A stretch of DNA of 64,000 bases from contig CAZQQT010000003.1 of NCBI GenBank assembly GCA_964595645.1, positions 157,636-221,635 on the forward strand. The letters run 5' to 3'. The number at the start of each line of letters is the position of its first letter. Positions within the stretch are counted from its first letter, which is position 1. This document shows positions 43,410 through 63,069 of this stretch, piece by piece. Made by a program: the position numbers and the translations under genes. The notes beneath the pieces were generated by a model. That model did not search any database. It saw only the letters and a list, made by a program, of their open reading frames with translations, and had not been told where the DNA came from. The stretch is from an uncultured Thermococci archaeon (lineage in GTDB: Archaea > Methanobacteriota_B > Thermococci > Methanofastidiosales > B48-G16).

Positions 43410-43425
43410 CCCTAATATAATAAGA
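43410..43425 (-). promoter_or_regulatory. Island palindrome site (OFOR/SucCD operon)
   Basis: CCCTAATATAATAAGA, abutting a minus-strand TATA-like element. Confidence 0.65.
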
Positions 43426-43458
43426 TACAAAATAGGCTTGAATCCTTAGAAACTGCAA

Positions 43459-43474
43459 TACTAAGCTAATAGGG
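43459..43474 (+). promoter_or_regulatory. Island palindrome site (opine dehydrogenase operon)
   Basis: TACTAAGCTAATAGGG, then TTATAGAA. Confidence 0.55.
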
Positions 43475-43520
43475 AGAATATTCTTATAGAACAACAAAAA
43501 AGAAAGAAAGAGGAAAAACC

Positions 43521-44585
43521 ATGAAGCTTGCCATTCTAGGAGGCGGTAGCGCTGGACTTGGTGTTGCCGGATATGTGGCTTTGAAAGAACACGAAGTGAA
43601 CATTTACAACAGGACACCGGAGAGAGTAGCAGAAATAGCGAAATCTGGAAGCCTTACAGTCTCTGGAGTAGTTGAGGGAACTGTCACCGTACACAAGGCG
43701 TCTTCAGATATGGAAGACATCGTAGAAGAGGCAGAGTATATTTTAATCGCCGCTCGTGCATTCGGCCACAGAACGCTTATTGAACGTTGTCTTCCTTATA
43801 TTAAAAATAACGCAGCGATTGTAGTATTTACTGGATACTGGGCAGCATTGCGCCTACAATCACTTCTTACCACAGAGAAAAGAGAAGATATCACCATTGC
43901 CGAAACCACACTTCTTCCCCTAATATCTCAGACTGTGGGTCCCGATCACGTGAAGATCACTGGTATAAAGTCAAAGATGAGAATTGCTGCGTATCCAGCT
44001 CCAGCCACGTTACCAGTACACGAAGAACTAAAAGAAATTTTTCCTAACTTATTTCCTGGTAAAAACGTGCTGGAAACAAGTTTAGAGAACTTTAATCCTG
44101 TGGTTCACGTCCCCATCGCACTCTTCAATCTGGCCCAGATAGAGAGAAGGGGAGAAACGTTTGAGTTTTATCAGGAGGGTATCTCGCCGAAGATTGCCGA
44201 TACGATTGATGCAGTGGATAGAGAGAGGATGGACCTTATACACACCTTTGATCTCGAGTTAATGTCGTTCAGAGAGATTCTACTGGATTATTATGAAACA
44301 GAAGGCACTTCGACATATGAGGTAGTGAAAAACTGTGAGCCAATGAAGGGGTACGTGCTTCCAAGTCCCCTCGAGTACGTGCAGGAGGACCTTCTCTATG
44401 GGCTTGTACCCATTGTATCGCTCTGCAATTCTCTGGGAATCCCAGCTGAGACAGCAAAGGCACTCATATCAACATGGTCACTGGTAAACGCAGAAAATTA
44501 CTGGAAAAAGGGAGTAAAAGCCGTCGATCTCGGCGTAGAAAATATGGATAGTAGAGAAATACGTAAAAAAGTAGAAGAGGGATAA
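43521..44585 (+). CDS. Opine (octopine/nopaline) dehydrogenase family protein
   Basis: GGGSAG Rossmann motif, IAET..LP, L.N.NP..H, FY..G, D.ER, Y..ED..YGL.P. Confidence 0.88.
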   Translation: MKLAILGGGSAGLGVAGYVALKEHEVNIYNRTPERVAEIAKSGSLTVSGVVEGTVTVHKASSDMEDIVEEAEYILIAARAFGHRTLIERCLPYIKNNAAIVVFTGYWAALRLQSLLTTEKREDITIAETTLLPLISQTVGPDHVKITGIKSKMRIAAYPAPATLPVHEELKEIFPNLFPGKNVLETSLENFNPVVHVPIALFNLAQIERRGETFEFYQEGISPKIADTIDAVDRERMDLIHTFDLELMSFREILLDYYETEGTSTYEVVKNCEPMKGYVLPSPLEYVQEDLLYGLVPIVSLCNSLGIPAETAKALISTWSLVNAENYWKKGVKAVDLGVENMDSREIRKKVEEG

Positions 44586-44587
44586 AA

Positions 44588-45853
44588 ATGTATGAGACGC
44601 ATCTGGAATGTATTCACTGTGGAGAAAAATACGATCTTAAAAAAATGTTTGAAGGCTGTCCCCGCTGTAAAAAAGAGGATTTCCTATCAAATGTAACTGT
44701 TTCCTATGACTACGAAAAAATTAAGGAGAAGGTGGATAAAAAAGCTTTGGAGAAGAGAAAAAGGAATAACGTGTGGAAATATAAAGAGTTACTGCCAATA
44801 ACACTAGATACAGAGACAACATTAGGGGAAGGAGGAACACCTCTACTCGAATGTACTACCTTGAGAAAAGAGTGGGGAATCGACAAGTTAGCAGTGAAGG
44901 ATGAATCGAGAAATCCTACTCACACTTTTAAAGATAGACTGGCTGCTGTTGGAATGTTCATGGCAAAGAAATTTAATACTCATTATATTATCGCCGGTGG
45001 AGGAAATACAGCTGCTGCTGCATCAGCATACAGTGCCAAGTATGGGGCAGAAGTAATCAGCTTTGAAAATCTCTATGAATCCAAACAGGCAATTCTACAG
45101 ACACGATCTTACGGAGGAAAAATCGTCTACTTAAAGCAGTATGACGATCGGTATATGCTCATGAAAAAATGTGTTGATACGCTCAATGGTTACTCGTTTT
45201 CAAGTTATACCCTCTCACCCGCTGGAGATCCCTACGGTTCAGAGGGATACAAAACAGTTGCCTATGAACTCTGCGAGCAGTGGGATTGGGAAAGTCCAGA
45301 TATGGTAATTGTCCCCACTGGACAGGGGATTGCATTATATGGGATCTGGAAGGGATTTGTAGACCTTCACACAGTAGGGCTCATTGATACGTTGCCAAAA
45401 ATGGTCGCAGCGGAATCTACGGCCGCCGGCTCTCTCACGAGAACACTTCTTAGTGAAGACGAGAAAATCAGAGAAGTTACTCCAGGACTGACGATAGCCA
45501 GACAGACAAGGATCCCCAAGGTGAGCTATAAAGGATATCGTGCGGTAAAAGACTCAAACGGAAACGCAGTAATGGTTGAAGATGAAGAAACCATGAGCGC
45601 TCTTCTACAACTGGCCAGGAAAGAAGGAATATACTCAAGTACTACCTCCGCAGTAGTGCTTGCAGCGGCGAGAAAACTAAAAGAGAAGGGGGAGATAGAT
45701 ACTGACACACGAGTAGTCTGTGTAATTACAGGGGGAGGATTAAAGGATCCCGATCACATGATACATCACCTTCCCGCCCTTCCTGATCCCATTGAAGGTA
45801 ACTGGAAACAATTTAAACAGCTCATGAATGCACACTATACCCTCTCTATATAA
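44588..45853 (+). CDS. Threonine-synthase-like PLP enzyme (fold type II) with N-terminal Zn ribbon
   Basis: CIHC/CPRC, LGEGGTPL, KDE..NPT.TFKDR, EGYKT.AYE, TG.GLKD; GGGNT and PTGQG are non-canonical. Confidence 0.85.
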   Translation: MYETHLECIHCGEKYDLKKMFEGCPRCKKEDFLSNVTVSYDYEKIKEKVDKKALEKRKRNNVWKYKELLPITLDTETTLGEGGTPLLECTTLRKEWGIDKLAVKDESRNPTHTFKDRLAAVGMFMAKKFNTHYIIAGGGNTAAAASAYSAKYGAEVISFENLYESKQAILQTRSYGGKIVYLKQYDDRYMLMKKCVDTLNGYSFSSYTLSPAGDPYGSEGYKTVAYELCEQWDWESPDMVIVPTGQGIALYGIWKGFVDLHTVGLIDTLPKMVAAESTAAGSLTRTLLSEDEKIREVTPGLTIARQTRIPKVSYKGYRAVKDSNGNAVMVEDEETMSALLQLARKEGIYSSTTSAVVLAAARKLKEKGEIDTDTRVVCVITGGGLKDPDHMIHHLPALPDPIEGNWKQFKQLMNAHYTLSI

Positions 45854-45883
45854 ACGTGGAAGGAACGTTTTACTTATTAACAC

Positions 45884-46576
45884 TTAAAAATCGAAGATAA
45901 AGTAGTCGGAAAGGGACAGCATTATTTTATACTCGGCAGATCGCAGACTCTCCCAGATAGTAGGCTCAGAAACATCAAATTTGTTAGCTATCTCTTTCAA
46001 GGTAATCTTTTTCTGTTTGTCATAGTATCCTAAATTCCACGCTGTCTTCAGGATCTCCAACTGTCTATCAGTGAGCCCCATATTGGCAAGAAAATCGAAG
46101 CTTCTATTGAACACCATATCAATCGGCAAATCGAAAAACTGTTCTGCCTTCACCTTCACACCCCTATTTTTTAATACATCAAGCGTTTCATTCAGGTTGC
46201 CAACAGAAGTACTGTATATCAACCACTCTTCTATTCCATGACTGTACGTCACAATATCCTTTGCAAAAGATTTAGTTTCATTGACCCAGTCCAAAACTTT
46301 ACAACTTTGTGCAGGATTAATCACAATAAACAGTTTAGTATCTTTCGTGTTTTCATTCAATAACTCAAGTTTTTCAACGCTGTCTTCTTCCCTCATGTCT
46401 GAAATGAGATTGTTCCTCAAAGATTTCTTTCCAATTACTTTGCACAATCCCCGCTGGATATTTTTTTTACTTTCTCTATGTAATATTTTTATTGTAACTC
46501 CGACATAATGTCTGCTCATTTCAGAGAGCAAACAGTTTCCTTTGTTCTCGCCTATTTTCACTACTGCTCCTTTCAT
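45884..46576 (-). CDS. HTH-10 (Bat/DmsR-type) transcriptional regulator
   Basis: C-terminal LTDRQ.E.L..A...GYYD.....TL.E.A....VS..T..E.LR.AE.K. Confidence 0.9.
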   Translation of the reverse strand: MKGAVVKIGENKGNCLLSEMSRHYVGVTIKILHRESKKNIQRGLCKVIGKKSLRNNLISDMREEDSVEKLELLNENTKDTKLFIVINPAQSCKVLDWVNETKSFAKDIVTYSHGIEEWLIYSTSVGNLNETLDVLKNRGVKVKAEQFFDLPIDMVFNRSFDFLANMGLTDRQLEILKTAWNLGYYDKQKKITLKEIANKFDVSEPTIWESLRSAEYKIMLSLSDYFIFDF

Positions 46577-46618
46577 GAATTCACCAGCATTCTACAGATT
46601 TAACATATGATTATGTTA

Positions 46619-46672
46619 CTCTAATATAATAGGTATTAAAATTATTTAAAAATTTTCCCTATTATAAAAGGT
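46619..46672 (-). promoter_or_regulatory. Two island palindrome sites flanking the regulator's TATA box
   Basis: CTCTAATATAATAGGT (46619-34) and CCCTATTATAAAAGGT (46657-72) either side of minus-strand TTTAAATA. Confidence 0.7.
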
Positions 46673-46683
46673 AAAATATTCTA

Positions 46684-48594
46684 CTAAGAAATGGACACTC
46701 CCTCTTTTTCTAACCTATCTAGTACTTTCTGAAGACCTAACTCTTTAAGAATTGCTTTCCTCTGGAGAGAAGTCGCAGTATCCCATCTGTGGAGCTCATA
46801 GTAATGATCCAACATTGCAGCCCACTGTTTTCTGTCAAGTTTCTCACCTTTAAGTGGACCAGATTTTACTTCTTGTTTGAAGAAACGTTCAGGGGGATAA
46901 TCATCTGCTCGAGTAAACCCTGCATGGAGTGTATTAATCGCTTTCTCTACATTTACGATTCGTTCCCCAATACGAGCGAGATCGCGGTTCGTAAAGCTCA
47001 CACCAGAGGCATGGGTAAGGAGAACACTGAAATCTTCAAGATTCACGAGGTTGGGACCCGACCAATCGGTCATAAATAGACACACCCCTACAGAATTCGC
47101 CACGGCATGAAGAATCTCATAGTAAAACACAAGCTTCGCTTTGTTCTCATAGGATTGCGGATCTCCTGCCGAACGGACGTCCCACTCTTTCTCAGAGATT
47201 TCTGGATCCAACGCCATAAATTCAGTCATAGGGGCACCGCTTGTGTGTCCCCCTCCTCGAGTAGACACAGCAACCCCAAGTGCCCATCCTTTCATCGTTC
47301 TGAGATGTTCATACAGATCCTGTCCCTTCATATGCATGGCATACTGGGATCCTCTCCCCACTCTCTCTGAAGCTCTTTTCGATCCGTATGCTAAAAGATC
47401 ACCGAATCCTTCTCTCCTCGCAATTTTTTCCATGAGCTGAGAAATTGCCTCAACATTGCCCCATTCAAGGGGCATTCCCTCTGTTATCGTTGTATCTATT
47501 AATCCACGTTGGTAACACTCCATGCCCCATGCGATTGTACCGGCAAGGCCATCTTCATCCATGCCAAGATCATCGCATTTCATATGCAATCGCATGACAT
47601 CTTTTGGTGATCGTACACCTAGTTTGCACGCAAAATTTGTGATAGAATTAGCTTCTAATGCTTCACAGATAGAATTGTTGTACTTATAAACTTTATCGCA
47701 TTTTATTGGACAGTTAAACGAGCCCTTACTTCTCACGAAATATTTTCGATATTTTTCGGGGACAATACTATCGTACTCTTCCTTCTCGAGATCAATATGA
47801 GACGCCTGAAAATTCTTGAAGGGTAACGATGAAAGGTTATTTTTAGGAATCATTGTAGAAGGGGGTCCAAATTTTCTCATGTTGTCAAGATACGGTGAGT
47901 TCTCAATCTTCTCGAGTACATTGGAACATGCTTCCTCAAACTTATGTCTGTGCGCGATCTCGATAGAGCCGTGTCCTCTGACTGCAATCGCTTTAAGGTT
48001 TTTCGATCCCATTACTGCACCGGTGCCACACTTCCCCGCCGCTCTCGTTTTGTTGGTCATTACCGAGGCATAGTATACTGTATTCTCACCTGCAGGACCG
48101 ATACACGCCACCTGTACATTGTTGTCAGAAAGATCCTTTCGAACAGTTTCTTCTGTATCGTACACCCCTTTTCCCCAGAGATGTTGGGCGGTTAAAATTT
48201 CTATTTCATCGTCGTTGATGTGAAGAAATACAGGATCATTACTTCTTCCTTTTATTATTATCTGATTGAGTCCGGCAAATTTTAACTCGGGCCCTAACTC
48301 GCCACATGAATTTGAGGATCCTACGCCATGGGTCAATGGACTCAGCGTGTCAAAAGTGTGCCGCGTAGAACATGGCACTCTCGTGCCTGCCAACGGGCCA
48401 GCACTGAGAATCAGAATATTTGATGGTGAGAGAGGATCTGTCCCTTTCTCTATCTCTTGAAAGAGCATCCACTGCGCTAATCCTTTCCCTCCTAGAAACG
48501 ATTTAAAGGAATCCTTATTTGACGTGATGGAGACCTTCTCTTTTTTAAGATCAACTATTGCTGCCTTTTTGAGGAAGTTATCGAACTTAAACAT
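46684..48594 (-). CDS. Aldehyde:ferredoxin oxidoreductase (tungstopterin AOR/WOR family), copy 1
   Basis: LGG.G, SP.T, IGPAGEN, G.GAVMGSKNLKAI, D..G.D, REG.GD.LA.G, RGG.H. Confidence 0.93.
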   Translation of the reverse strand: MFKFDNFLKKAAIVDLKKEKVSITSNKDSFKSFLGGKGLAQWMLFQEIEKGTDPLSPSNILILSAGPLAGTRVPCSTRHTFDTLSPLTHGVGSSNSCGELGPELKFAGLNQIIIKGRSNDPVFLHINDDEIEILTAQHLWGKGVYDTEETVRKDLSDNNVQVACIGPAGENTVYYASVMTNKTRAAGKCGTGAVMGSKNLKAIAVRGHGSIEIAHRHKFEEACSNVLEKIENSPYLDNMRKFGPPSTMIPKNNLSSLPFKNFQASHIDLEKEEYDSIVPEKYRKYFVRSKGSFNCPIKCDKVYKYNNSICEALEANSITNFACKLGVRSPKDVMRLHMKCDDLGMDEDGLAGTIAWGMECYQRGLIDTTITEGMPLEWGNVEAISQLMEKIARREGFGDLLAYGSKRASERVGRGSQYAMHMKGQDLYEHLRTMKGWALGVAVSTRGGGHTSGAPMTEFMALDPEISEKEWDVRSAGDPQSYENKAKLVFYYEILHAVANSVGVCLFMTDWSGPNLVNLEDFSVLLTHASGVSFTNRDLARIGERIVNVEKAINTLHAGFTRADDYPPERFFKQEVKSGPLKGEKLDRKQWAAMLDHYYELHRWDTATSLQRKAILKELGLQKVLDRLEKEGVSIS

Positions 48595-48598
48595 CTAC

Positions 48599-49369
48599 TT
48601 AATATTCTAAAAACGTTGTCTTTATATAATCGACAGTTCTGTCTACTACTGCCTGAACAATTTTCTCTCCCTTTTCCTTTGTAGCTTTGGTTGCATCGCC
48701 CATCACACCTGACTTACACCGTTCAGTAATTTTTGTAAGAGGAACTACTACTCGTTGAGGCGCACCGAGTATATCCTTTTCTTTTTTTGTTTCATGAGGC
48801 ATGTATGGTGTTTCTTTTGTAGCCTTGCTCATATCGATGTCCATTCCTAAAGCGAGCGACACAGATGTCTCTCCTTCATCTGCATGGCGAAATCCTGTTT
48901 CTGTTACCTCGTCCACCACATCAGCACTAAGTTTTGTATAATCTATTACTGGAATAATTACGCCATATTTCTGGTAAAAATCCTGTGCTGTAATAGCAAG
49001 AAAATGAGGATTTCCTCCATGCCCGTTCAGTACAAGTATCTTTTTAAATCCATTGTCCACTACGCTCCTGAATATGTCCCATACCAGTTTTTGATACGTC
49101 TCCGAGCTCAATGATAATTTACCAGGATAGTTCATCCATTCTGAATATCCAAACTGGAGTGTGGGGGTTACCACTACCCGAATGTCTTCTTCCTGACACG
49201 CCGTTGCGATGCGTTTCGCGAGTTCCGTCGCATTAAATGTGTCATCATCTACAGGAAGATGTGGTCCATGTCCTTCAATTGCGCCAGTAGGAATGATAAC
49301 CACTGTAGTTTCCTTATCCAAGGCTCCTATCTCATCCATGGTCATTTCAGCCCAAAGAATTTCTTTCAT
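48599..49369 (-). CDS. Creatininase-family amidohydrolase, copy 1
   Basis: P.G.IEGHGPHLP...D, NGHGGN, HADE.ETS, GVMGD...AT.EKG. Confidence 0.92.
   Translation of the reverse strand: MKEILWAEMTMDEIGALDKETTVVIIPTGAIEGHGPHLPVDDDTFNATELAKRIATACQEEDIRVVVTPTLQFGYSEWMNYPGKLSLSSETYQKLVWDIFRSVVDNGFKKILVLNGHGGNPHFLAITAQDFYQKYGVIIPVIDYTKLSADVVDEVTETGFRHADEGETSVSLALGMDIDMSKATKETPYMPHETKKEKDILGAPQRVVVPLTKITERCKSGVMGDATKATKEKGEKIVQAVVDRTVDYIKTTFLEY
48990..49070. repeat. 81-bp exact direct repeat shared with 63556-63636
   Basis: gtaatagcaag...tacgctcctg is identical in both creatininase genes. Confidence 0.9.
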
Positions 49370-49430
49370 GATAAAAACATTCATTACTATATTTTTATAA
49401 GTTTTTCCTATTATAATTTCTATAACGTAT

Positions 49431-50153
49431 CTACTCCAGTTCCTCTTTGCCACCAAGGTAGGCTTTTATCACGCGAGGATCGTGGAGGATTTCTTCTCCT
49501 GATCCCTCCTTTATTGTCTTTCCATTTTCCAGCACGTATGCTCGATCACTCTCTTCAAGTGCACGACGGGCGTTCTGCTCTACTATGAGAAAACTTAATT
49601 CATATTCTTCTCTTATCTCATGAATTTTCTCGAAAATCATCGTCTGTACTTTGGGAGCGAGACCGAGTGTAGGTTCGTCAAGCATAAGAAGTTGTGGATC
49701 AACCATCATTCCTCGCGCTATTTCTATCATTCGCCGTTGCCCCCCACTTAGTGTGGAGGTAGGATTGTCAAATTTCTCTTTGAAAATAGGAAACATTTGA
49801 GAAACTTCTTCTATTTTCTCTCTAAGCTCTTCTTCGTCCTCTATCTGATATCCGCCCATCTCTAGATTCTCTTTCACAGTCATTGTGGGAAAAATACTAT
49901 GTCGTTGAAGTACGTACGAAATTCCTCTTTCCAACGTTTCAATAGGACTAAGATCAGTAATATCTTCCCCTCGAAATTTTACACTGCCTTTTGATGGTGT
50001 TAAAAATCCAAAAATAGTACGTAACACAGTAGATTTCCCTGCACCATTTGGACCGATCATCGCAACAACCTCACCTTTTTTTACCTCGATATCTGCACCA
50101 AAGAGAACCTGAAAATCGCCATATCCGGAGTGAATATTTTCAACTTCTAACAT
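49431..50153 (-). CDS. livF: Liv-type ABC ATPase (LivF-like), copy 1
   Basis: GPNGAGKST, LSGGQ, LDEPT.GLAP, VEQNA. Confidence 0.93.
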   Translation of the reverse strand: MLEVENIHSGYGDFQVLFGADIEVKKGEVVAMIGPNGAGKSTVLRTIFGFLTPSKGSVKFRGEDITDLSPIETLERGISYVLQRHSIFPTMTVKENLEMGGYQIEDEEELREKIEEVSQMFPIFKEKFDNPTSTLSGGQRRMIEIARGMMVDPQLLMLDEPTLGLAPKVQTMIFEKIHEIREEYELSFLIVEQNARRALEESDRAYVLENGKTIKEGSGEEILHDPRVIKAYLGGKEELE

Positions 50154-50154
50154 G

Positions 50155-50913
50155 TTAATCACCAAAATACGCCTCAAGTACTTCTGGATCGTTTCTTACT
50201 TCTTCTGGGGAACCTTCCTTGAGTATCTCCCCGCTTGCCAGACAGTAGAGTCTCTGAGAAATTTCCATTATCACATCTATATTATGCTCTATCACAAGAA
50301 ATGTCGTTCCGAATTGTTCGTTTGCCTTGATAATATCGTCAGTGATCTTGTTTATCAGCGTGGGATTCACGCCTGCAGTGGGTTCATCGAGCATAACCAT
50401 CTTAGGATCCTGCATTAGCGTGCACGCAAGCTCCAGTAACTTTTGCTGTCCGAATGAGATCTCCGAGGCCTTATGAGTTGTAAGGTGATCTATCTCAACA
50501 AAATCCAGTAAGGTTTTGGCGCGTTCCTTTTCTTCCTCGTCAAATCCACTGTACGTCGTGGTTAGAGTACCTTCATTTTTATGGCTTTTGGATATAAGTA
50601 CATTTTCAAGCACGGTCAACTCGTTGAAAGGGCGTGTGATCTGAAAGCTTCGAGATATCCCCATTTTTGCCAGTTCGCTAGGTTTTTTTCCTGTAGTCTC
50701 TTTTCCATCAAAGATCACCGCTCCACCATTCGGTTTGTAGAAACCAGTAATACAGTTAAACAGTGTTGTTTTCCCTGAACCATTGGGGCCGATAAGCCCT
50801 AGTATCTCTCCCTTATTCACGTGTATATCCACATTGTTAAGGGCAGTTAATCCTCCAAACCGTTTTGTCAGATCTTGCACTTGTAAAATCTTCTCGTGAT
50901 TATTCTGACTCAT
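50155..50913 (-). CDS. livG: Liv-type ABC ATPase (LivG-like), copy 1
   Basis: FGGL.A, GPNGSGKTT, S.GQQK, LDEP.AG.N, IEH, V.EAY.G. Confidence 0.93.
   Translation of the reverse strand: MSQNNHEKILQVQDLTKRFGGLTALNNVDIHVNKGEILGLIGPNGSGKTTLFNCITGFYKPNGGAVIFDGKETTGKKPSELAKMGISRSFQITRPFNELTVLENVLISKSHKNEGTLTTTYSGFDEEEKERAKTLLDFVEIDHLTTHKASEISFGQQKLLELACTLMQDPKMVMLDEPTAGVNPTLINKITDDIIKANEQFGTTFLVIEHNIDVIMEISQRLYCLASGEILKEGSPEEVRNDPEVLEAYFGD
50738..50784. repeat. 47-bp exact inverted repeat shared with 58730-58776
   Basis: aatggttcagggaaaacaacactgtttaactgtattactggtttcta occurs in both livG copies, on opposite strands. Confidence 0.85.
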
Positions 50914-51916: not shown

Positions 51917-51933
51917 TTTTTCATGCCTCCTTG

Positions 51934-52794: not shown

Positions 52795-52951
52795 ATCATC
52801 ATCTCTCCTATTTTATTTGTCCATACCTCTTTTTCATATTTGATAGTTTTTTCTCTCTTACATTAATAGTTTTCGTTTAGCTGTTCTGCAATATACTTTG
52901 AAAAAACATAAATAAAAAATAAAAAAAGGAGGATTTCAGCTTTTACTCTAT

Positions 52952-54295: not shown

Positions 54296-54339
54296 TTTTA
54301 TCACTATTAAGAGTGGTAGTTTTTTTTTTTTAACTTTGC

Positions 54340-54396
54340 CCCTATTATTATAGGATAAACTCTCTATTTTAAAAGCCTATCCCTAATATTGTAGGG
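54340..54396 (-). promoter_or_regulatory. Two island palindrome sites (transporter 1 operon)
   Basis: CCCTATTATTATAGGA (54340-55) and CCCTAATATTGTAGGG (54381-96). Confidence 0.75.
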
Positions 54397-54527
54397 AAAA
54401 CGTCCAATTTTCAAATAATTTTCTTTTAAATAGAAAAAATTGATTTTTATAATTTTTTATAGCTTAAAAGGTAGATTAAAGTCTAATTTAAACTTAAAGA
54501 TGAAAATGGAAATAATAAAAAATAGTT

Positions 54528-54543
54528 CACTATAATATTATGG
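54528..54543 (+). promoter_or_regulatory. Island palindrome site (racemase gene)
   Basis: CACTATAATATTATGG, then TTATATAA 5 nt later. Confidence 0.6.
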
Positions 54544-54641
54544 ATAAGTTATATAAAACATGTAAAGAATAACCAACATGCTGGTAAATTTAGAATAATA
54601 TGCTAAAAATCGAAATAAGATATTTAAAAAGGTGATAAAAT

Positions 54642-55352
54642 ATGTTTGGATGGCGAGGTAGAATAGGATTAATCCTTCCCTCAAACAATACAGTGATGCA
54701 ACAGGAATTTTCATCTGTTGTGCCTGAAGGCGTCTCGGTACATGAAGCACGGTTGGGGGTAGTAAAAAAAACAGACCCGGAAGTATTGATAACAATGTCT
54801 GAGCATGCAGAGCGAGCAGCCGGCGAACTCTCATGTTGCGATGTCGATGTGATAGTATATGGCTGTACCAGTGGTAGTTTTCTTGAAGGTCCAGAATTTG
54901 AAAAGGAACTGACAAAAAGAATAGAGAAAGCATCAAACCTACCTGCATTCACCACTTCTAAAGCTATGTTGGAAGCATTGAAAGCACTCAATACTAAAAA
55001 ATTAGCTTTGGCATCACCCTATCGAAAAGCAACAGAAGGGGCAGAAAAAGAATTTTTAGAAGGAGAAGGTATCGAAGTCGTCAACGCAAAGGGGTTGGGG
55101 GTTGTGAACCCTACAGACATTGGGAGACTTTCACCGTATAGAGCATACCGCATAGCAAAAAGTATTGACTCACCGGAAGTTGACACTATCTTCATAAGTT
55201 GCACGGATTTTAGAACATTCGAGATTATAGAACTTCTGGAAAAGGATCTAAAAAAGCCTGTAATAAGCAGTAATCAGGTTAGTTTGTGGATGGCGCTCAA
55301 ATTTTTGAATATAGAGATGGAAAAAGAGCTAGGATCTCTTTTTTCTCTTTAA
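54642..55352 (+). CDS. Asp/Glu racemase superfamily protein (maleate isomerase / EutA-like)
   Basis: RIGLI.PS.N, YGCTSGS, SPY, ISCTDF, PVISSNQ; two catalytic Cys. Confidence 0.9.
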   Translation: MFGWRGRIGLILPSNNTVMQQEFSSVVPEGVSVHEARLGVVKKTDPEVLITMSEHAERAAGELSCCDVDVIVYGCTSGSFLEGPEFEKELTKRIEKASNLPAFTTSKAMLEALKALNTKKLALASPYRKATEGAEKEFLEGEGIEVVNAKGLGVVNPTDIGRLSPYRAYRIAKSIDSPEVDTIFISCTDFRTFEIIELLEKDLKKPVISSNQVSLWMALKFLNIEMEKELGSLFSL

Positions 55353-55383
55353 ATTCATTTTTTCATTTTTTTATTTAAAAAAC

Positions 55384-55399
55384 TATTAAGATAATAGGG
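55384..55399 (+). promoter_or_regulatory. Island palindrome site (transporter 2 operon)
   Basis: TATTAAGATAATAGGG, then TTATAATA 5 nt later. Confidence 0.55.
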
Positions 55400-55445
55400 A
55401 TAAATTATAATAATAAATCTAAGAGGAAAGTATCTGGTGTTTACT

Positions 55446-56705
55446 ATGAATGGAAAGAGTAAAATGGGGCTAGCTATTGTTGTTGCCCTTTTGTTCTCAG
55501 TCTTTGCAGGATGCATAGGCGGTGAAGAGGAAGAAGGGCCCAAAGAGATTAAAATTGGATGTGTATGGCCATTGACTGGTGATCTTGCATCGTACGGACA
55601 GTTAAACAAGAGAGCATTGGAATTGGCAGCCGAGATAATAAACAACGAATATTCAGATCTTAACCTACCTCTAGCAAGTTCAAAGGGACTACCTAACCTT
55701 GATGGTGCAAAGATAAAACTTGTCTGGGGAGATAGCAGAGGTACACCTGAAGAGGGCAGATCTGCTGCAGAATATCTCATAACTAACGAAAATGTGGTAG
55801 CATTACTTGGATGTTACCAGAGCGCTGTGACTGAAACTGCAAGTTTACCTGCAGAAACCCATGGAATTCCCTTCCTCAACCCAGATTCGTCTGCACCTAA
55901 ACTGACAGAAAGGGATTTTAAATGGTTCTGGAGGTGTACACCGAAGGCCACAGATTGGACAAAGAGCATGATGATGTTCTACGACGAACTAGGTATTAAT
56001 ACTCTTGGAATATTTAACGAAGATACACTCTGGGGAACGGAAAGTGGCGATTGGCTTGAACATTGGGCCGAAGAGTATGGGATTGAGGTAGTGGAGAGAG
56101 TGCAGTATCCTCACCAAACCTCAGATCTCTCTGCAGAAGTTCTCAAAATGAAAAACGCAGACCCAGAGGCAGTTCATGTTGCAGGATATATCTCCGACAG
56201 CATACTCATGATTAAGACGATGAAACAGAACGACTGGATGCCTAAAATGGTATCTTCTGGAGAAATGATTCAGATGCCAGATTATCTGAATGCATTGGGG
56301 AACGATGGAAACTATCTGTGTTTGTCAATACTCTTCCCCCAAGACCTAGTACAGCATAAAGACCTTACAGTAGAACTCAATGAAATGATGCAGGAGCGGT
56401 ACGATACCACGTTCAACGATCCCTCTGCCCGAGCGTTTAACGGCCTGTTTGTTCTCGCAGATGCAATTAACAGAGCGGGATCTACCGATCCAGAAGCGAT
56501 AAACAATGCCCTGGCAAATACGAATATACCCGGTGAAAAACTGATTTTGCCTTGGGAATCGATTCAATTTGATGAGAACCATCAACTGAAAACATCAGGA
56601 TACGTGATCCAACAGATACAGGAACAAGAGTACTATACTGTCTGGCCGGAGGATATGGCAACAAAAGAGCTAATTTACCCCATACCTGATTGGGATGAAA
56701 GGTAA
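55446..56705 (+). CDS. Liv-type substrate-binding lipoprotein, copy 2
   Basis: FAGC lipobox, KIG...PLTG, G.YQS.VT, DAINRAGSTDP, same P.PDWDER end as copy 1. Confidence 0.93.
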   Translation: MNGKSKMGLAIVVALLFSVFAGCIGGEEEEGPKEIKIGCVWPLTGDLASYGQLNKRALELAAEIINNEYSDLNLPLASSKGLPNLDGAKIKLVWGDSRGTPEEGRSAAEYLITNENVVALLGCYQSAVTETASLPAETHGIPFLNPDSSAPKLTERDFKWFWRCTPKATDWTKSMMMFYDELGINTLGIFNEDTLWGTESGDWLEHWAEEYGIEVVERVQYPHQTSDLSAEVLKMKNADPEAVHVAGYISDSILMIKTMKQNDWMPKMVSSGEMIQMPDYLNALGNDGNYLCLSILFPQDLVQHKDLTVELNEMMQERYDTTFNDPSARAFNGLFVLADAINRAGSTDPEAINNALANTNIPGEKLILPWESIQFDENHQLKTSGYVIQQIQEQEYYTVWPEDMATKELIYPIPDWDER

Positions 56706-56709
56706 ACTA

Positions 56710-56736
56710 TTTTTTTCTTTTTTTTATATATTTTTT
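56710..56736 (+). terminator. Oligo-T tract after substrate-binding protein gene
   Basis: T7-C-T8...T6; an equivalent minus-strand tract follows copy 1 at ~52901-52927. Confidence 0.5.
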
Positions 56737-56763
56737 AATCATTAATAAGCGGAGGAAAAGGAA

Positions 56764-57630
56764 ATGGAAGCAAACTATTTGATACAGGCACTCATAAATG
56801 GCATACTGATTGGAGGAGTATACGCATTGATAGCAATAGGGCTTAGTTTAATCTGGGGTGTAATGGAAATTGTGAACTTCGCTCATGGAGATTATTTGAT
56901 GATAGCTGCGTTTCTTTCGTATATATTTTGGGTGAATTTAGGGTTTGATCCACTATTAGCACTACCTTTTGTTGTGATCATTCTTTTATTGGCTGGTTTT
57001 GTCACGCAAAAATTCGTCTTGAAACGATTGATGAACTCTCCTACCCTCATTACCATAGCTGCTACCTTTGCTCTCTCACTTATCATTCGATATGGATTTT
57101 TTATAGTTTTCAAAGCCGATTACAAAACGATACGAGAGCCCCTTCTCCAAGGGACACTGCATTTTGGCTCTATCACAGTACCCGCCGCCAAACTAGCCAC
57201 ATTGGTTGTTGCTATGATAAGTATTACATTGTTATTTTCATTTTTGAAGTACACAAAGAAGGGAAAGGCACTAAGAGCCACTGCGCAAGACAGAGAGGTG
57301 GCAAAGGCTCTTGGTGTGAATGTCGACCAGATCTTTCTTCTCACATGGGGGCTTGGCCTGGCGTGTGTAGGAGTTGCTGGAACAATGCTCAGTAACTTTT
57401 ATTATGTTTTTCCGCTGCTAGGAAAAATATTCGTGCTTATTGCCTTTGCTAGTGTAACGTTAGGAGGATTTGGGAGTGTTCACGGCGCAGTATTTGGAGG
57501 ACTTGCAATAGGTATAATTCAACAAGTTGGCGGTGCGATGATATCTCCCGCACTAAAAGATGTATTCGTATTCATTGCATTTTTACTCGTGTTAATGTTT
57601 AAACCAAAAGGATTCTTTGGCAAATACTAA
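56764..57630 (+). CDS. livH: LivH-like permease, copy 2
   Basis: GLSLIWGV...VNFAHG, G.ALRA..QD, LGG.GS. Confidence 0.93.
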   Translation: MEANYLIQALINGILIGGVYALIAIGLSLIWGVMEIVNFAHGDYLMIAAFLSYIFWVNLGFDPLLALPFVVIILLLAGFVTQKFVLKRLMNSPTLITIAATFALSLIIRYGFFIVFKADYKTIREPLLQGTLHFGSITVPAAKLATLVVAMISITLLFSFLKYTKKGKALRATAQDREVAKALGVNVDQIFLLTWGLGLACVGVAGTMLSNFYYVFPLLGKIFVLIAFASVTLGGFGSVHGAVFGGLAIGIIQQVGGAMISPALKDVFVFIAFLLVLMFKPKGFFGKY

Positions 57631-57645
57631 CGGAGGCGGAGAGAT

Positions 57646-58638
57646 ATGGATAGAGAAGATATTTTGGAGAAAATTCGAAGAAAAAAATGGCAAATTCCAA
57701 TATTACTAACACTATTAGTACTCCCCTTGTTCATTAGCGATGAGCCCTTCTTGCTTCATGTGTGCATTATGACATTTGTCTACTTGGCACTATCGCAGGC
57801 ATGGAACCTTATTGGAGGGTTTGCAGGGCAATTAAGTTTTGCAAATCACATCTTTTTTGCCTTTGGAGCATATACCTCTACAATGCTGTTAATTCATCTT
57901 AATCTCACACCATGGTTGGGCGTATTTGCAGGAATCGCCATTGCTGCAAGCGTTGCATATCTCCTGGGATTTCAGCTGTTCCATCTCAAGGGGCACTATT
58001 TTGCTGTAGCTACAATTGCATTTGCTGAGATGGTAAAGGTACTCTTTATCAATTGGAGGGGCGTAGGTGCCGCATATGGCCTCTCTCTTCCCGCCAAAAT
58101 GCCCTCGTTATACCATATGATGTGGTCTTCGAAAATACCTTACTACTATATGGCACTGGGAATGGCGATCGGTGCTACGGTATTAATTTACGTCATAGAT
58201 AAGGCGAAAGCGGGGATGTACTTTAGATCAATAAAACAAGATGAAGAAGGAGCAGAACACAAAGGAATAGACACTAGTTACTACAAACTCCTCGCTTTCA
58301 TGATTAGTGCAGGTATTTGTGCAACAGTAGGTACGTTTTACGCACAGTATATACTGTATATATCACCTCGAAGTACCATGGAGATTTTAATTTCTACTAA
58401 ATGTATTCTAATTGTACTTTTTGGTGGGCTGGGGACTGTTGCTGGTCCCGTATTGGGTGCCGCTATCCTTGTACCGCTAGGAGAATACACAAGAATACAG
58501 CTCGGAGGCGGCGGAGAAGGATGGGATTACATAATCTACGGGATCATTATTTTGGTGATACTGTTGTACCAACCAAAAGGTGTGTACGATCTTCTAAGGG
58601 GGTACAAAAAATATGTCGAGAAAATGTTTGGAAGTTAA
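57646..58638 (+). CDS. livM: LivM-like permease, copy 2
   Basis: WNL.GGFAGQLSF, LKGHYFA.AT, GGLGT..GP. Confidence 0.93.
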   Translation: MDREDILEKIRRKKWQIPILLTLLVLPLFISDEPFLLHVCIMTFVYLALSQAWNLIGGFAGQLSFANHIFFAFGAYTSTMLLIHLNLTPWLGVFAGIAIAASVAYLLGFQLFHLKGHYFAVATIAFAEMVKVLFINWRGVGAAYGLSLPAKMPSLYHMMWSSKIPYYYMALGMAIGATVLIYVIDKAKAGMYFRSIKQDEEGAEHKGIDTSYYKLLAFMISAGICATVGTFYAQYILYISPRSTMEILISTKCILIVLFGGLGTVAGPVLGAAILVPLGEYTRIQLGGGGEGWDYIIYGIIILVILLYQPKGVYDLLRGYKKYVEKMFGS

Positions 58639-59362
58639 CGCTCTTACAAAACGATTTGGAGGATTGACTGCTCTTGACAATGTCGATCTTCACGTTGATG
58701 AAGCTGAAATAGTAGGACTTATAGGACCAAATGGTTCAGGGAAAACAACACTGTTTAACTGTATTACTGGTTTCTATAAACCAAATGGTGGAAAGGTGAT
58801 CCTAAGAGAAAAGGATATCACAGGGGAGTCTCCTCATGAGATAATCCAAGAAGGAGTGTCTAGAACATTTCAGATTGTCAGAGTTTTTCCAGAGCTCACC
58901 GTGACCGAAAATGTATTGATCTCCATATACCATAAAAGAGAGAGCCGATTTGGATCTCTCTGTAGACGAAATGATTCGAAAGAGATAAAAAAAGCATCAA
59001 AACTCCTTGATTTTGTAGACATATCTCATTTATCAGATGAACCCGCAGGAGAACTTTCTTATGGGCAGCAAAAATTGTTGACGTTGGCTTCTGCACTTAT
59101 GCAAGACCCGAGTGTAGTACTTCTCGATGAACCCACAGCGGGTGTGAACCCTACCCTCATAAATAAGATTGTGGAAAGAATAATGGAAGCCAATAAAGAA
59201 TTTGATGTGACGTTTTTTGTGATAGAACACAACATGGATGTCATGATGAACATTTCAACGAGAATGTATGCATTGGCTTCTGGTAAAATACTTACTGAAG
59301 GAATCCCTAATGAAGTGAGAAACAATCCGGATGTACTTGAAGCGTATTTTGGAGGCGATTGA
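58613..59362 (+). CDS. livG: LivG-like ATPase, copy 2
   Basis: GPNGSGKTT, LSYGQQK, LDEPTAG.N, IEH. Confidence 0.93.
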   Translation: MSRKCLEVNALTKRFGGLTALDNVDLHVDEAEIVGLIGPNGSGKTTLFNCITGFYKPNGGKVILREKDITGESPHEIIQEGVSRTFQIVRVFPELTVTENVLISIYHKRESRFGSLCRRNDSKEIKKASKLLDFVDISHLSDEPAGELSYGQQKLLTLASALMQDPSVVLLDEPTAGVNPTLINKIVERIMEANKEFDVTFFVIEHNMDVMMNISTRMYALASGKILTEGIPNEVRNNPDVLEAYFGGD

Positions 59363-59364
59363 TC

Positions 59365-60072
59365 ATGTTACTAGAAGTAAAGGGGATTCACGCTTCATAT
59401 GGGAAGTTTGAAATCCTTAAAGGTGTAGATCTTCATGTGGAAAAAGGTGAGATTGTATCGATGATCGGTCCGAACGGCGCAGGAAAATCTACTGTGTTTA
59501 AAACAATTTTTGGTTTTTTAACTCCTTTAAAAGGGAGAGTCATATTTAAAGGAGGAGATATTGGTGGGTTACCACCTCATGAAGTTATAAGAAAGGGAAT
59601 CTCCTATAACTTTCAGAGGAGCAGTGTGTTTCCCAACATGACCGTGAAAGAGAATATGGACATGGGCGCATACATCAGAAATGATACAGAGGAAATCAAG
59701 AGAGATATAGAAGAATTGAACAACATGTTTCCAATTCTAAAAGAAAGAAAAAATGAAATGGCAAAAAATCTAAGTGGTGGACAAAGACAGATGGTAGAAA
59801 TGGCAAGGGGGCTTCTTTTGCATCCAGATTTATTCCTACTCGACGAACCTACTGCTGGGTTGGCCCCAAAAATCCAAAAAACTGTATTTGAAAAGATACG
59901 AGAAATAAATGAGAATGGCGTAACTGTAATGATCGTGGAACAAAATGCCCGACTCGCGCTTCAGCATAGTAATCGAGCATACGTGCTGGAGAATGGCAGA
60001 ACAATAATGGAAGGATCTGGAGAAGAGATCTTGCATAATCCTCGGGTAATAGAGGCCTATTTAGGGGGGTAA
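59365..60072 (+). CDS. livF: LivF-like ATPase, copy 2
   Basis: GPNGAGKST, LSGGQ, LDEPTAGLAP, VEQNA. Confidence 0.93.
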   Translation: MLLEVKGIHASYGKFEILKGVDLHVEKGEIVSMIGPNGAGKSTVFKTIFGFLTPLKGRVIFKGGDIGGLPPHEVIRKGISYNFQRSSVFPNMTVKENMDMGAYIRNDTEEIKRDIEELNNMFPILKERKNEMAKNLSGGQRQMVEMARGLLLHPDLFLLDEPTAGLAPKIQKTVFEKIREINENGVTVMIVEQNARLALQHSNRAYVLENGRTIMEGSGEEILHNPRVIEAYLGG

Positions 60073-60095
60073 GAAACAATCATCAGAGGCCTAAT

Positions 60096-62006
60096 ATGAA
60101 TGTCACGGAAGGTAATATACTTCATGTGGATCTCTCCTCTGGAGAAATATCCTTTGAATCGCATGAAAAAAGCTACAAAAAATTCTTAGGTGGGAGGGGA
60201 GTAAACCAGTACATCCTTTTCAACAAATTACCACAACACATTTCTCCGTTTGATCCTCAGAACATAATTGTTTTGGGGGCAGGCCTACTTAACGGTACGC
60301 AAGCACCTACCGCATGCAGAATGAGCATTGACACAAAAAACGTTCTTACAGGGGGAATTGGCTCCAGCAATGTTGGCGGATGCTTTGGTCCTGAAATGAG
60401 AAGGGCGGGCATTACAAATATCGTCATCACCGGCAAAGCGAAAAAACTTTCATACCTAACAGTAGAAGATGAAGAAATCGAACTAAAGGATGCATCCCAC
60501 CTCAAACAAAAAACCATTTCGGAAACAGAGAAAATGATTGGCGATGATACTGGAAATAATTTCCAGATAATGAGTATCGGGCCAGCCGGAGAAAATCTCG
60601 TGAGATCGGCCTGCATTATTGTTAACGGTGCGAGAGTTGCCGCACGTTGTGGTACTGGTGCGGTGATGGGATCGAAAAATCTGAAGGCGATCGCTGTAAG
60701 GGGAAATGGTATGGTAGAAGTAGCGAACTCCAGAAAATTTGAAGAGGAGATAGAAAGATGCAACGAAAAGCTACTGTGCGCAGATTCCTTCGAAAAGATA
60801 CAAAAATACGGAATATATTTCAATAAAAATCCATGGATCGAAGGGCCGCAAACACCCTACAAAAATTTCTCTGGTGAACATCCAAATTCGGAAGAAGAAG
60901 AAAAACTAAAAAGAGAAAAGTTCTTTAAATACAAAATCGGAAGAAAAGGATGTTGTGATGCCTGCCCCCTTGAAGGGTGGAGTGTATATGGGTGGAAAGA
61001 AAACGGAAAGACAATTACTGTGGAGCAACTTCAGTACAACGCGATTCACAATTTTGGATATAAGCTGGGTATCTTCGAACCAAAAGAAATACTCAAGGCC
61101 CATACACTGGCCAACAATCTCGGTCTCGACGAGGATAATCTGTGTGGAGTAATTGCTTGGGCTATAGAATGTTATAAAAAAGGGTTACTTACTCGCAAGG
61201 ATACTGATGGTGTCTCTCTTGAAGGGGGGAACACTGAGGTAATTTCTCAGCTCATGGAAAAAATTGCGTATAGAGAAGGAATTGGCGATCTTTTGGCTGA
61301 GGGATGTAAACGAGCATCAGCAAAAATCGGAAGGGGAACTGAAAAGTACTGCGTGCACGTGAAGGGTCAGGAACTTTTTGAGACATTGTGGCTTTCTCCT
61401 GCGTGGAGTCTAGGGACCGTTGTGTCTCCCCGAGGAGGAACTCATACACGGGGAGCTATTATGGTTAACGCAGTAAAAAACGCACTTTCCGAGGATCAGT
61501 GTAGAGAACTATTCGGCTGTTCTGTTGGGGAGATGACTTCGTACGAAAATAAAGAAAAATTGGTATTCTTCATGGAAAAGTTTGAATCGGTGCTGGATTG
61601 TATGGGGATGTGTTTTTTTGTTCATGGTATACACAGAAAAGGCATGCTGATGCCCACCGATCTCTCGGCACTACTCTCAGCTGCTATGGGTCATAAAATA
61701 TCCTCCACTACTCTACTAGCGATTGGTGAGAGTGTAACTAACCTTGAGAAATCTTTCAACGTTCTTCATACAGAATGGACACGAAAAAACGATTATCCTC
61801 CGAAAAAATTTATGAATACACCCCTTAAAGGAAAAGATAGTATTGATCGAGAGAAATGGAAGAAAATGCTCAACAACTATTATGAACTCCATAGATGGGA
61901 TAAAAGGACAGGATGGCCCACGCGAAAAACATTAGAAGATCTTGATCTACAGGTAGTGGCAAATAAATTGAAGAAATATGAGAAATTGCCCAATATGAAA
62001 AAATGA
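60096..62006 (+). CDS. AOR/WOR family oxidoreductase, copy 2
   Basis: LGGRG, IGPAGEN, RCG.GAVMGSKNLKAI, GLD, REG.GD.LAEG, RGG.H, YY....WD..TG.P. Confidence 0.93.
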   Translation: MNVTEGNILHVDLSSGEISFESHEKSYKKFLGGRGVNQYILFNKLPQHISPFDPQNIIVLGAGLLNGTQAPTACRMSIDTKNVLTGGIGSSNVGGCFGPEMRRAGITNIVITGKAKKLSYLTVEDEEIELKDASHLKQKTISETEKMIGDDTGNNFQIMSIGPAGENLVRSACIIVNGARVAARCGTGAVMGSKNLKAIAVRGNGMVEVANSRKFEEEIERCNEKLLCADSFEKIQKYGIYFNKNPWIEGPQTPYKNFSGEHPNSEEEEKLKREKFFKYKIGRKGCCDACPLEGWSVYGWKENGKTITVEQLQYNAIHNFGYKLGIFEPKEILKAHTLANNLGLDEDNLCGVIAWAIECYKKGLLTRKDTDGVSLEGGNTEVISQLMEKIAYREGIGDLLAEGCKRASAKIGRGTEKYCVHVKGQELFETLWLSPAWSLGTVVSPRGGTHTRGAIMVNAVKNALSEDQCRELFGCSVGEMTSYENKEKLVFFMEKFESVLDCMGMCFFVHGIHRKGMLMPTDLSALLSAAMGHKISSTTLLAIGESVTNLEKSFNVLHTEWTRKNDYPPKKFMNTPLKGKDSIDREKWKKMLNNYYELHRWDKRTGWPTRKTLEDLDLQVVANKLKKYEKLPNMKK

Positions 62007-62020
62007 AAAAATAAAAAGAG

Positions 62021-63007
62021 TTACAGAATATACGAAAGTATTGACTTCTGTGCGTGCAACCTATTTTCCGATTCGTCGTAAATTACGGAGTTCGGTCCAT
62101 CCAGTACTTCATCTGTCACTTCGTCACCGACTGCAGCAGGTAGTGCATGTTGTACCATCACATCTCTTTTAGCGAGAGAAACCAGATCACTATCCGTAAT
62201 CCAATGCTTATATTTTTCCGGATTCTTAATATGAGGGGCCTCTGTTCCTTCCCCCTCCATTCCTTTGGTTGCGTAGATGTCTGGTGCCCATCCTTTTACA
62301 TGGATGACATCTGCATCTTCGGCAGCTTCCTCTCTATCATGGGTAAGTGTGAGAGTTGAACCATGCTGTTCTGCCTGTTCCCGTGCATAATCAAGCATAT
62401 CATCATTTGGGTCGTATCCTTCGGGATATGCAAGAACGAGATCCATTCCTAATTTCGATCCGGCTTCCAAAGTTGAATTCACGATACCCAACGGCTTGCT
62501 GTAGGGACAGTAACCCCACATCATCACATACTTTACTCCTTCGAGACTCTTTTTCCGCTCATACGCTGTCATAAAATCTGCCATGACCTGACATGGATGT
62601 CCAGCTTCACTATTCGCATTGATTACAGGGACATCTGCCCACTTCGCCATTTCTTGTTGATCGGAGAAGTTAAACGCTCTATACATGATTCCATCAACGT
62701 ATCGGGCCAATACAGATGCTTTATGCTTTAGTGGCTCCTTTCCTTTGCCCCATGACGCACCTGGAGGATAGAATATAGCGTGTCCTCCCAGCTGCTCCAT
62801 TCCTGTTTCGAAGGATGTTCTCGTTCGTGTGGACTCCCACTCGAACAGCATCGCCAAAACTTTTCCTTTGAGGGTCTCGTGAGGTACTCCCCTCTGAAGC
62901 TTATCTTTTAGATCTATTGCGGTATCAAGTATCTTTAGTATCTCCTCTCTACTATAGTCCTTTAATGTTAGAAAGTCTCTTCCTTTCATGGGTCGTTTGG
63001 AAGACAT
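62021..63007 (-). CDS. Carbamoyltransferase, YgeW/N-acyl-ornithine (knotted) type rather than canonical ArgF
   Basis: STRT, HPCQ, WGYCPYSKPLGI, VKGW, HALP, ENRLH; no D..NN or SMG motifs. Confidence 0.88.
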   Translation of the reverse strand: MSSKRPMKGRDFLTLKDYSREEILKILDTAIDLKDKLQRGVPHETLKGKVLAMLFEWESTRTRTSFETGMEQLGGHAIFYPPGASWGKGKEPLKHKASVLARYVDGIMYRAFNFSDQQEMAKWADVPVINANSEAGHPCQVMADFMTAYERKKSLEGVKYVMMWGYCPYSKPLGIVNSTLEAGSKLGMDLVLAYPEGYDPNDDMLDYAREQAEQHGSTLTLTHDREEAAEDADVIHVKGWAPDIYATKGMEGEGTEAPHIKNPEKYKHWITDSDLVSLAKRDVMVQHALPAAVGDEVTDEVLDGPNSVIYDESENRLHAQKSILSYIL

Positions 63008-63053
63008 TTTTTCACCACTCAGTATTAAAATCTATGAGATATTAAATAGTTAC

Positions 63054-63069
63054 TCCTATTATTTTAAGT
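63054..63069 (-). promoter_or_regulatory. Island palindrome site (carbamoyltransferase)
   Basis: Reverse complement ACTTAAAATAATAGGA, then TTTAATAT. Confidence 0.5.

Follow-up and report, generated by a model that had tools for sequence, protein, structure and literature searches.

A BRE-abutting dyad in an archaeal amino-acid catabolism island and its probable HTH_10 regulator

We analysed a 64,000-nucleotide stretch of the genome of an uncultured Thermococci archaeon (contig CAZQQT010000003.1, positions 157,636 to 221,635; hereafter the window), which carries a 25-kb gene island for amino-acid catabolism. Every transcription unit of the island whose promoter falls inside the window is preceded by a copy of a 16-bp element, an asymmetric dyad with the consensus wCCTAwwATAwTAGGG. 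At promoters the element lies in one register directly upstream of the transcription factor B (TFB) recognition element (BRE) and the TATA box. We consider it likely that this element is the operator of the island's own regulator, a helix-turn-helix (HTH) protein of the HTH_10 family, which would bind as a homodimer, activate from the BRE-abutting sites, repress its own synthesis and sense a ligand. The genome (G000) is 1.97 Mb in length and 99.96% complete.

The element, its register and its specificity

All ten 16-mers listed in a preliminary description of the window, made from the sequence alone, were recovered on the strands and at the coordinates given below. Each 16-mer was oriented toward the gene it precedes and aligned together with the downstream 45 nt. 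The ten window sites show one architecture: nCCTAwwATAwTAGGG, a short purine- or A-rich spacer and a TATA box, with start codons 36–99 nt further on. The sites are as follows (L021 to L024 are related islands on other contigs):

43410..43425, minus strand: site before the operon of 2-oxoacid:ferredoxin oxidoreductase (OFOR) and a succinyl-CoA-synthetase-like ligase; orthologous site in L021, L022 and L023.
43459..43474, plus strand: site before the operon of an opine-dehydrogenase-like protein and a pyridoxal-phosphate (PLP) enzyme; analogous site before both copies of the PALP gene in L024.
46657..46672, minus strand: regulator promoter, site 1, upstream of the BRE (aaaa) and the TATA box TTTAAATA (46643-46650); kept in all five islands.
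46619..46634, minus strand: regulator promoter, site 2, which begins 7-8 nt past the TATA box and spans about -15 to +2.
49406..49421, minus strand: weaker site at an internal promoter before creatininase-family gene 1 and the aldehyde:ferredoxin oxidoreductase gene AOR1.
54340..54355, minus strand: proximal site before the LivK1-HMGF1 operon, with the top score genome-wide.
54381..54396, minus strand: distal LivK1 site, the island's only exact CCCTA-N6-TAGGG, followed by its own TATA-like box.
54528..54543, plus strand: site before the EutA/arylmalonate-decarboxylase-like gene; orthologous sites in L022 and L024.
55384..55399, plus strand: site before the LivK2-HMGF2-AOR2 operon; orthologous sites in L022 and L024.
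63054..63069, minus strand: site before the ornithine-carbamoyltransferase-like gene; two sites before the L024 orthologue.

The element had originally been described as a palindrome, CCCTA-N6-TAGGG. The dyad itself holds, but strict symmetry does not: only two exact copies occur in the genome, one of them in the island (54381), which is too few for the palindrome to serve as a strict definition of the motif. The two halves differ in conservation, the TATA-proximal half (TAGGG) being near-invariant and the distal half (CCTA) looser. The sites adjoin the BRE as had been reported; the gap of 5–9 nt to a TATA-like box was too loose, since the TATA box lies exactly 7 nt past the last G. When the 29 promoter-proximal sites of five related islands were pooled, the last G was followed by RnAA, two unspecified bases and the TATA box at +7, with A at +3 in 29/29 sites and at +4 in 26/29. 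Nine promoters of the window already obey this rule, though they precede unrelated genes. A general profile of 314 promoters outside the island, anchored on the TATA box, has R at -6 and A at -5 to -3, which is the BRE. The RnAA that follows the sites is thus the normal BRE of the organism, and the register agrees with the general BRE/TATA profile. Outside the site, the BRE and the TATA box, the flanks hold no information.

The site at 49406, earlier called a half site, is indeed weaker and keeps mainly the proximal half; its location could be refined to an intergenic spacer, where it forms part of an internal promoter. The spacer is a short one just past the stop codon (49431) of LivF1, which codes for the first transporter's second ATPase. 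The same half-site arrangement, TAAGGG followed by aaaaga and TATAAAAA, is kept in L022 and three times in L024. The longest open reading frame (ORF) of creatininase-family gene 1 is probably too long, with the true start likely to be further downstream. The LivK1 promoter region (54305-54400) consists of two tandem modules of site and TATA box, 41 bp apart, and a comparable tandem pair, 45 bp apart, stands before the carbamoyltransferase gene of L024. A tandem of the LivK1 type could represent a pair of promoters, or else a single promoter with a further site that is auxiliary or repressing.

Specificity was measured in two ways. All 8-mers were compared between the intergenic DNA of the island (1172 nt) and the other intergenic DNA of the genome (203 kb). 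The most enriched word was ATAATAGG, with 6 copies in the island and 15 elsewhere (p = 5.6e-10), followed by TAATAGGG and AATAGGGA. A non-circular matrix was also built from 15 sites of other metagenomic islands, none of them from G000, and applied with a threshold of 18 bits. It matched 9 positions genome-wide, 6 of which are in the island, where the intergenic DNA amounts to 1178 nt of a total of 206,579 nt (0.57%; binomial p ~1e-12). A top match of the matrix, C1:218337, was rejected as a regulon member: its TATA sequence is only 2 nt off, and it lies within the 5' end of a gene.

These two results and the survey of other promoters agree that the motif marks an island-specific promoter set, as first proposed. 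The regulon is nevertheless wider than the range then given, since at least two loci outside it carry sites with the correct geometry. One is at C5:167643, in locus L025 (C5:163721-168694), and reads CCCTTTTATGATAGGG + agaaa + ATATTAAA. The operon it precedes comes straight after a D-glutamate-cyclase-like gene and encodes an aminotransferase of class I/II, an Asp/Glu racemase, a LarA-like racemase and a transporter of the SBF family. Both this locus and the window are at contig ends, and they may be contiguous. The second, at C11:76995 (L026), reads TGCTATTATAATAGGG + gcatac + TATATAAA. About 240 nt separate it from a downstream gene for a sodium:solute symporter, after which come a small ORF and a 2Fe-2S/FAD oxidoreductase gene.

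Because the motif is contiguous with the BRE, and because its TATA-proximal half is the better conserved, it could in principle be an extended BRE read by TFB or an alternative TFB; the duplicate Liv operons could also have given their promoters a shared, repeat-derived ancestry, and AT-rich spacers could yield such words by chance. We regard all three of these origins as very improbable. An extended BRE should be equally frequent at promoters genome-wide, as the preliminary description pointed out, whereas TAGGR stands in the matching position at 1/314 of the non-island promoters, and TFB is encoded by just one gene (C2:107301-107849) of this nearly complete genome. No BRE or TATA box follows site 2 of the regulator promoter. 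The composite TAGGR-RnAA-TATA has 35 copies genome-wide, 6 of them in the island, and only the island copies and C5:167647 carry ATAwTA upstream of it. Repeat spread is excluded by flanks that hold no information and by the unrelated genes downstream, and chance by the matrix scan and the 8-mer enrichment.

Conservation and the binder of the motif

The regulator has five other orthologous proteins, with 57-69% identity, among 5.8 billion clusters, and these form one 50% cluster in the HMMER library. In a set of 41 related genomes that includes G000, an orthologue occurs in G000 and G004 only. The same set of genes, in a rearranged order, is found on the G004 contig (L002/L021) and on three contigs from metagenomes (L022-L024). 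In these four further syntenic islands the proteins are 55-88% identical and the flanking DNA has diverged, and the sites recur. A matrix trained on the window matched L021-L024 almost only in intergenic DNA, with a constant spacer and TATA box, before the orthologues of the regulator, the OFOR operon, both transporter operons, the EutA-like gene and the carbamoyltransferase. Lower-scoring matches precede the creatininase-family genes, both copies of the PLP-enzyme gene and LivK2 of L024. In alignments of the regulator and OFOR promoters, the site, BRE and TATA box are near-invariant and the leaders diverge with indels. One symmetric site of L024 lies in a divergent spacer of 91 bp with a BRE and TATA box equidistant on either side, and so serves two divergent promoters. 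Also in L024 (11971-13455), a threonine-synthase-like PLP gene is tandemly duplicated together with its promoter, with about 55 nt upstream, including the site, BRE and TATA box, identical.

The 41 genomes were also searched for the pattern CCTAWWATAWTAGGG with at most one mismatch, using the reversed pattern as a control. An excess was found in G000 (7 vs 1) and G004 (8 vs 2), and in no other genome. The genome G006, which has no regulator, gave 7 vs 5 matches and was considered as a counter-example; it was set aside as chance, given that all of its matches are in coding sequence, that the genome has 34% GC and that the island genes are not nearby.

HTH_10 is among the commonest families of archaeal regulators, and we know of almost no operators or structures for it; a literature search for HTH_10 operators found none. 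The regulator of the window belongs to this family: residues 168-219 match Pfam PF04967 (HTH_10) with 68.7 bits, against a cut-off of 23.1. It is one of four HTH_10 genes in the genome, and no NCBIfam model matches it. Outside its orthologue cluster nothing is more than 32% identical to it overall. The AlphaFold2 (AF2) model has a predicted local distance difference test score (pLDDT) of 90. In this model, residues 1-150 form two ferredoxin-fold (beta-alpha-beta-beta-alpha-beta) units, a tandem ACT-like region, and residues 152-230 match sigma-region-4/LuxR/Tfx-like HTH structures. For the N-terminal part, the structural matches are Ta1207 (Z 11.2, root-mean-square deviation (rmsd) 3.0 Å over 139 aligned residues) and ACT domains (Z 8-8.7). 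A sequence search of solved structures found no homologue of the regulator; its sole match, a flavodoxin at E 0.76, is meaningless, and the Foldseek matches against the PDB were mostly spurious long alignments, with Ta1207 alone usable.

The predicted homodimer scored 0.50, against 0.00 for the best control, with at least 69% of contacts shared between runs and a partner pLDDT of at least 78; a mark of 0.50 is reached by 20/30 proteins solved as pairs and by 1/23 solved as single chains. The prediction, in which the interface is the long C-terminal helix, supports a homodimeric regulator.

The fold sets the regulator apart from the better known groups around it. Bat-type HTH_10 proteins have GAF/PAS sensor domains. 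Like Bat and the other haloarchaeal HTH_10 (PF04967) regulators, the island protein has the common C-terminal DNA-binding domain, but Pfam finds no GAF or PAS domain in it and a tandem ACT-like region takes that place. Nor does it have the layout of Lrp/AsnC proteins (an N-terminal winged HTH and a C-terminal RAM domain): the order is reversed, the HTH is of the HTH_10/sigma-region-4 type, and the sensor region is only fold-related to ACT and RAM domains. The Tfx-family protein EnfR (TON_1525) of Thermococcus onnurineus has a sigma-region-4-like HTH followed by a long dimerising helix, and in its solved structure the two HTH motifs are set one helical turn apart (PMC10570040). Its HTH matches that of the island regulator (Z 7.5, rmsd 1.5 Å, 52 aligned residues, 27% identity), and the dimer predicted here is also formed via a long C-terminal helix; in EnfR the HTH is N-terminal and the remaining fold is unlike that of the island regulator.

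Comparative evidence favours the HTH_10 protein as the binder of the motif. In each of the five syntenic islands its gene is the sole regulator gene. In all five, the regulator promoter has two sites 37-38 bp apart, one at the BRE and the other over the expected start site. The recognition helix, SEPT-x-WESLR, is invariant in the six orthologues despite their overall identity of 57-69%. To these points and the co-occurrence of gene and motif can be added the promoters of more distant HTH_10 paralogues. In genus g6, three species of another family have ACCTAATATATTAGGT or variants of it between CCTTTTATG and the ATG (loci L004, L006 and L010 of genomes G013, G010 and G016), with a perfect dyad in L006, which suggests that these genes are leaderless and autorepressed through an operator much like the window motif. 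Three genomes of family f1 (loci L003, L019 and L030) have CCGAATATATTCGG or variants between the TATA box and the likely ATG. L030 is on contig C9 of G000 itself: the paralogue at C9:63447-64100 is about 26% identical to the island regulator and of the same length, and its dyad, CCGGATATATACGG, is near-perfect. Its longest ORF probably starts 8 codons too early. The paralogue groups share length and architecture, and the outer bases of their dyads differ along with the recognition helix.

A regulator encoded elsewhere, for instance an amino-acid sensor of the Lrp/AsnC type, might instead bind the motif, leaving the HTH_10 protein to do something else. Factors of the Lrp type typically have AT-centred dyads of about 15 bp, the two further good sites (C5:167643 and C11:76995) are outside the island, and the link of the HTH_10 protein to the motif is a comparative one. 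We nevertheless think such a binder improbable. Among the genomes searched, the motif is in excess only in the two that carry an HTH_10 orthologue; the most conserved pair of sites is that of the regulator's own promoter; the recognition helix does not vary; and the paralogues repeat the self-promoter design with half-sites of their own. Furthermore, a second island pairs another HTH_10 paralogue with a different box: 6/8 intergenic copies of GCATATGC in the genome cluster at C6:30950-58969, beside the paralogue C6:34178-34336. The likeness is that of an HTH_10 gene adjoining clustered short boxes; the box is one of 8 bp, the gene content is other, and the paralogue is about 34% identical over the C-terminal half.

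A more general scheme, to which we give tentative credence at most, is that the short ACT-like HTH_10 proteins make up a modular system, in which each paralogue would govern one horizontally mobile catabolic island through its own variant of an AT-centred dyad. A copy in the BRE register would activate by direct contact with TFB, and a copy between the TATA box and the start would serve autorepression. The variants would then possibly be CCTA...TAGG in the island described here, CCG...CGG and ACC...GGT in the paralogues, and GCATATGC in the C6 island.

Mode of action

The regulator would act as follows. A homodimer would bind the operator with one subunit on each of the half-sites, which are 10 bp apart. 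At eight target promoters of the window and two elsewhere, where the operator ends where the BRE begins, the dimer would be placed beside TFB and the TATA-binding protein (TBP), and most probably it would stimulate formation of the pre-initiation complex as an activator. At the regulator's own promoter, a dimer on the additional operator, located past the TATA box and ahead of the start site, would shut off synthesis of the protein, giving both positive and negative autoregulation; by its position, site 2 would be the autorepressing one. The tandem ACT-like region at the N terminus would presumably detect a small molecule linked to what the island takes up and breaks down, a nitrogen-rich amino-acid substrate. 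That signal is probably amino-acid-like, as would fit an ACT-like sensor.

Provided that the HTH_10 protein binds the sites, activation appears the better supported sign of regulation, judged from their position. Archaeal activators that work from sites upstream of the BRE include TrmBL1, SurR, Tar, Ptr2, TFB-RF1 and those of the EarA type, and the operator position noted in the preliminary description as that of archaeal activators was found directly upstream of both BRE and TATA box at all 29 promoter-proximal sites. So exact a register is what a stereospecific contact with TFB and TBP would demand and exceeds what simple occlusion calls for, and activation is therefore favoured. A dual regulator is favoured because the targets carry the upstream class of site in one register, while the regulator's own promoter adds the downstream class.

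The nearest parallels are found in the Thermococcales. TrmBL1 activates from sites that lie upstream of both BRE and TATA box and represses from downstream sites (PMC4706686). TrmBL1/Tgr and SurR resemble the island system in placing one palindromic operator at many promoters of a metabolic regulon, with an effect set by the position of the site; the island promoters would correspond to the upstream class, and the promoter of the regulator to both classes. They differ in that TrmBL1 and SurR bind another motif by winged helices of the TrmB and ArsR-like types instead of a C-terminal sigma-region-4-like HTH_10 domain, and in that the spacing relative to the BRE is strictly constant in the island system, for which regulation is inferred. 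Tar (TK0271) of Thermococcus kodakarensis binds a palindrome that lies upstream of both BRE and TATA box at all operons of an amino-acid pathway and activates them (PMC6737238). It is a MarR-like protein with the motif TGGACA-N8-TGTCCA and serves biosynthesis, whereas the island is catabolic.

The same operator and the same HTH_10 protein could also work by repression throughout, with TFB and TBP blocked at every promoter until an inducer derived from the substrate releases the regulator. This is the less probable account, though one to be taken seriously. Inducer-released repressors are common for catabolic islands, and the motif ends in a G at -7 that overlaps the BRE at its 5' edge. At several targets the BRE and TATA elements are near-consensus and might fire unaided, and classical repressing positions are occupied by the regulator promoter's site 2 and by all the paralogue dyads. 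The Tfx-type factor EnfR, of similar structure, is a repressor whose 36-bp pseudo-palindromic target covers the TATA region (PMC10570040). However, occlusion needs overlap and not register, and the target sites never overlap the TATA box or the start and keep one register in 29/29 cases. The two positions at the regulator promoter suggest two effects, and the characterised archaeal factors that bind upstream of both BRE and TATA box activate (PMC4706686, PMC6737238).

Several points weigh against an HTH_10 activator that represses only itself. The BRE and TATA elements of several targets are reasonably good, which is less typical of activator-dependent promoters, and a site that abuts the BRE could hinder TFB binding. 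The 29 pooled sites come from five related islands and so do not count as 29 separate events. The regulator, the island and the motif are always found together, and this co-occurrence would look the same whether the binder is encoded in the island or is a conserved host factor; the paralogue dyads are analogies and not tests.

The island and what the operator offers

The transcription units of the island within the window are listed below.

43347 down to 38841, minus strand: OFOR operon, with the alpha, beta and gamma subunits of the oxidoreductase and a two-subunit succinyl-CoA-synthetase-like ligase.
43521-45853, plus strand: opine-dehydrogenase-like gene and threonine-synthase-like PLP enzyme gene.
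45884-46576, minus strand: HTH_10 regulator gene (230 aa).
54304 down to 46684, minus strand: LivK1-HMGF1 operon, an ATP-binding cassette transporter of the LivKHMGF type, followed by creatininase-family gene 1 and the tungsten-type aldehyde:ferredoxin oxidoreductase gene AOR1.
54642-55352, plus strand: EutA/arylmalonate-decarboxylase-like gene (Asp/Glu racemase superfamily).
55437-62006, plus strand: second LivKHMGF set with AOR2 (LivK2-HMGF2-AOR2 operon).
63007 down to 62021, minus strand: ornithine-carbamoyltransferase-like gene.

The two Liv operons are duplicates. Immediately 5' of the gene at 63165-63935 is coding sequence that reaches the contig end, so this gene has no promoter of its own. 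The genes past the borders of the island are housekeeping genes (acetyltransferase, FtsZ, ribosomal protein L1). The carbamoyltransferase (62021-63007) barely passes the cut-off of the NCBIfam ornithine carbamoyltransferase equivalog (282.0 vs 280.85 bits) and falls short of that of a subfamily NCBIfam model (289.8 vs 306 bits); it may be a catabolic enzyme or prefer another substrate. The alpha subunit of methyl-coenzyme M reductase was not found in the genome, though its nearest named relative is a metagenome-assembled genome labelled 'Methanomicrobia archaeon'.

The best available description of the system is that of a well-supported new pair of operator and regulator whose kind is already familiar; the type of system is not new. 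Given the very probable link between regulator and motif, the element would be one of the first well-defined operators for the HTH_10 family. The system is compact: one small regulator, about ten natural promoters in one BRE register, a bidirectional example, and one promoter where an upstream site is combined with a downstream one. This would make it a good model for the contact of an archaeal activator with TFB and TBP, of which detailed knowledge exists for very few factors. If the modular scheme for the short HTH_10 proteins were true, natural variation would allow both a recognition code (from helix residues to the outer bases of the half-sites) and the interface between activator and TFB to be read. 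For the organism, the site marks the genes of one pathway and so narrows the search for its substrate. That pathway takes in two transporters, two tungsten-type oxidoreductases, an oxoacid oxidoreductase with a CoA ligase, and a carbamoyltransferase, together with the remote operons of the aminotransferase and racemases and of the sodium symporter.

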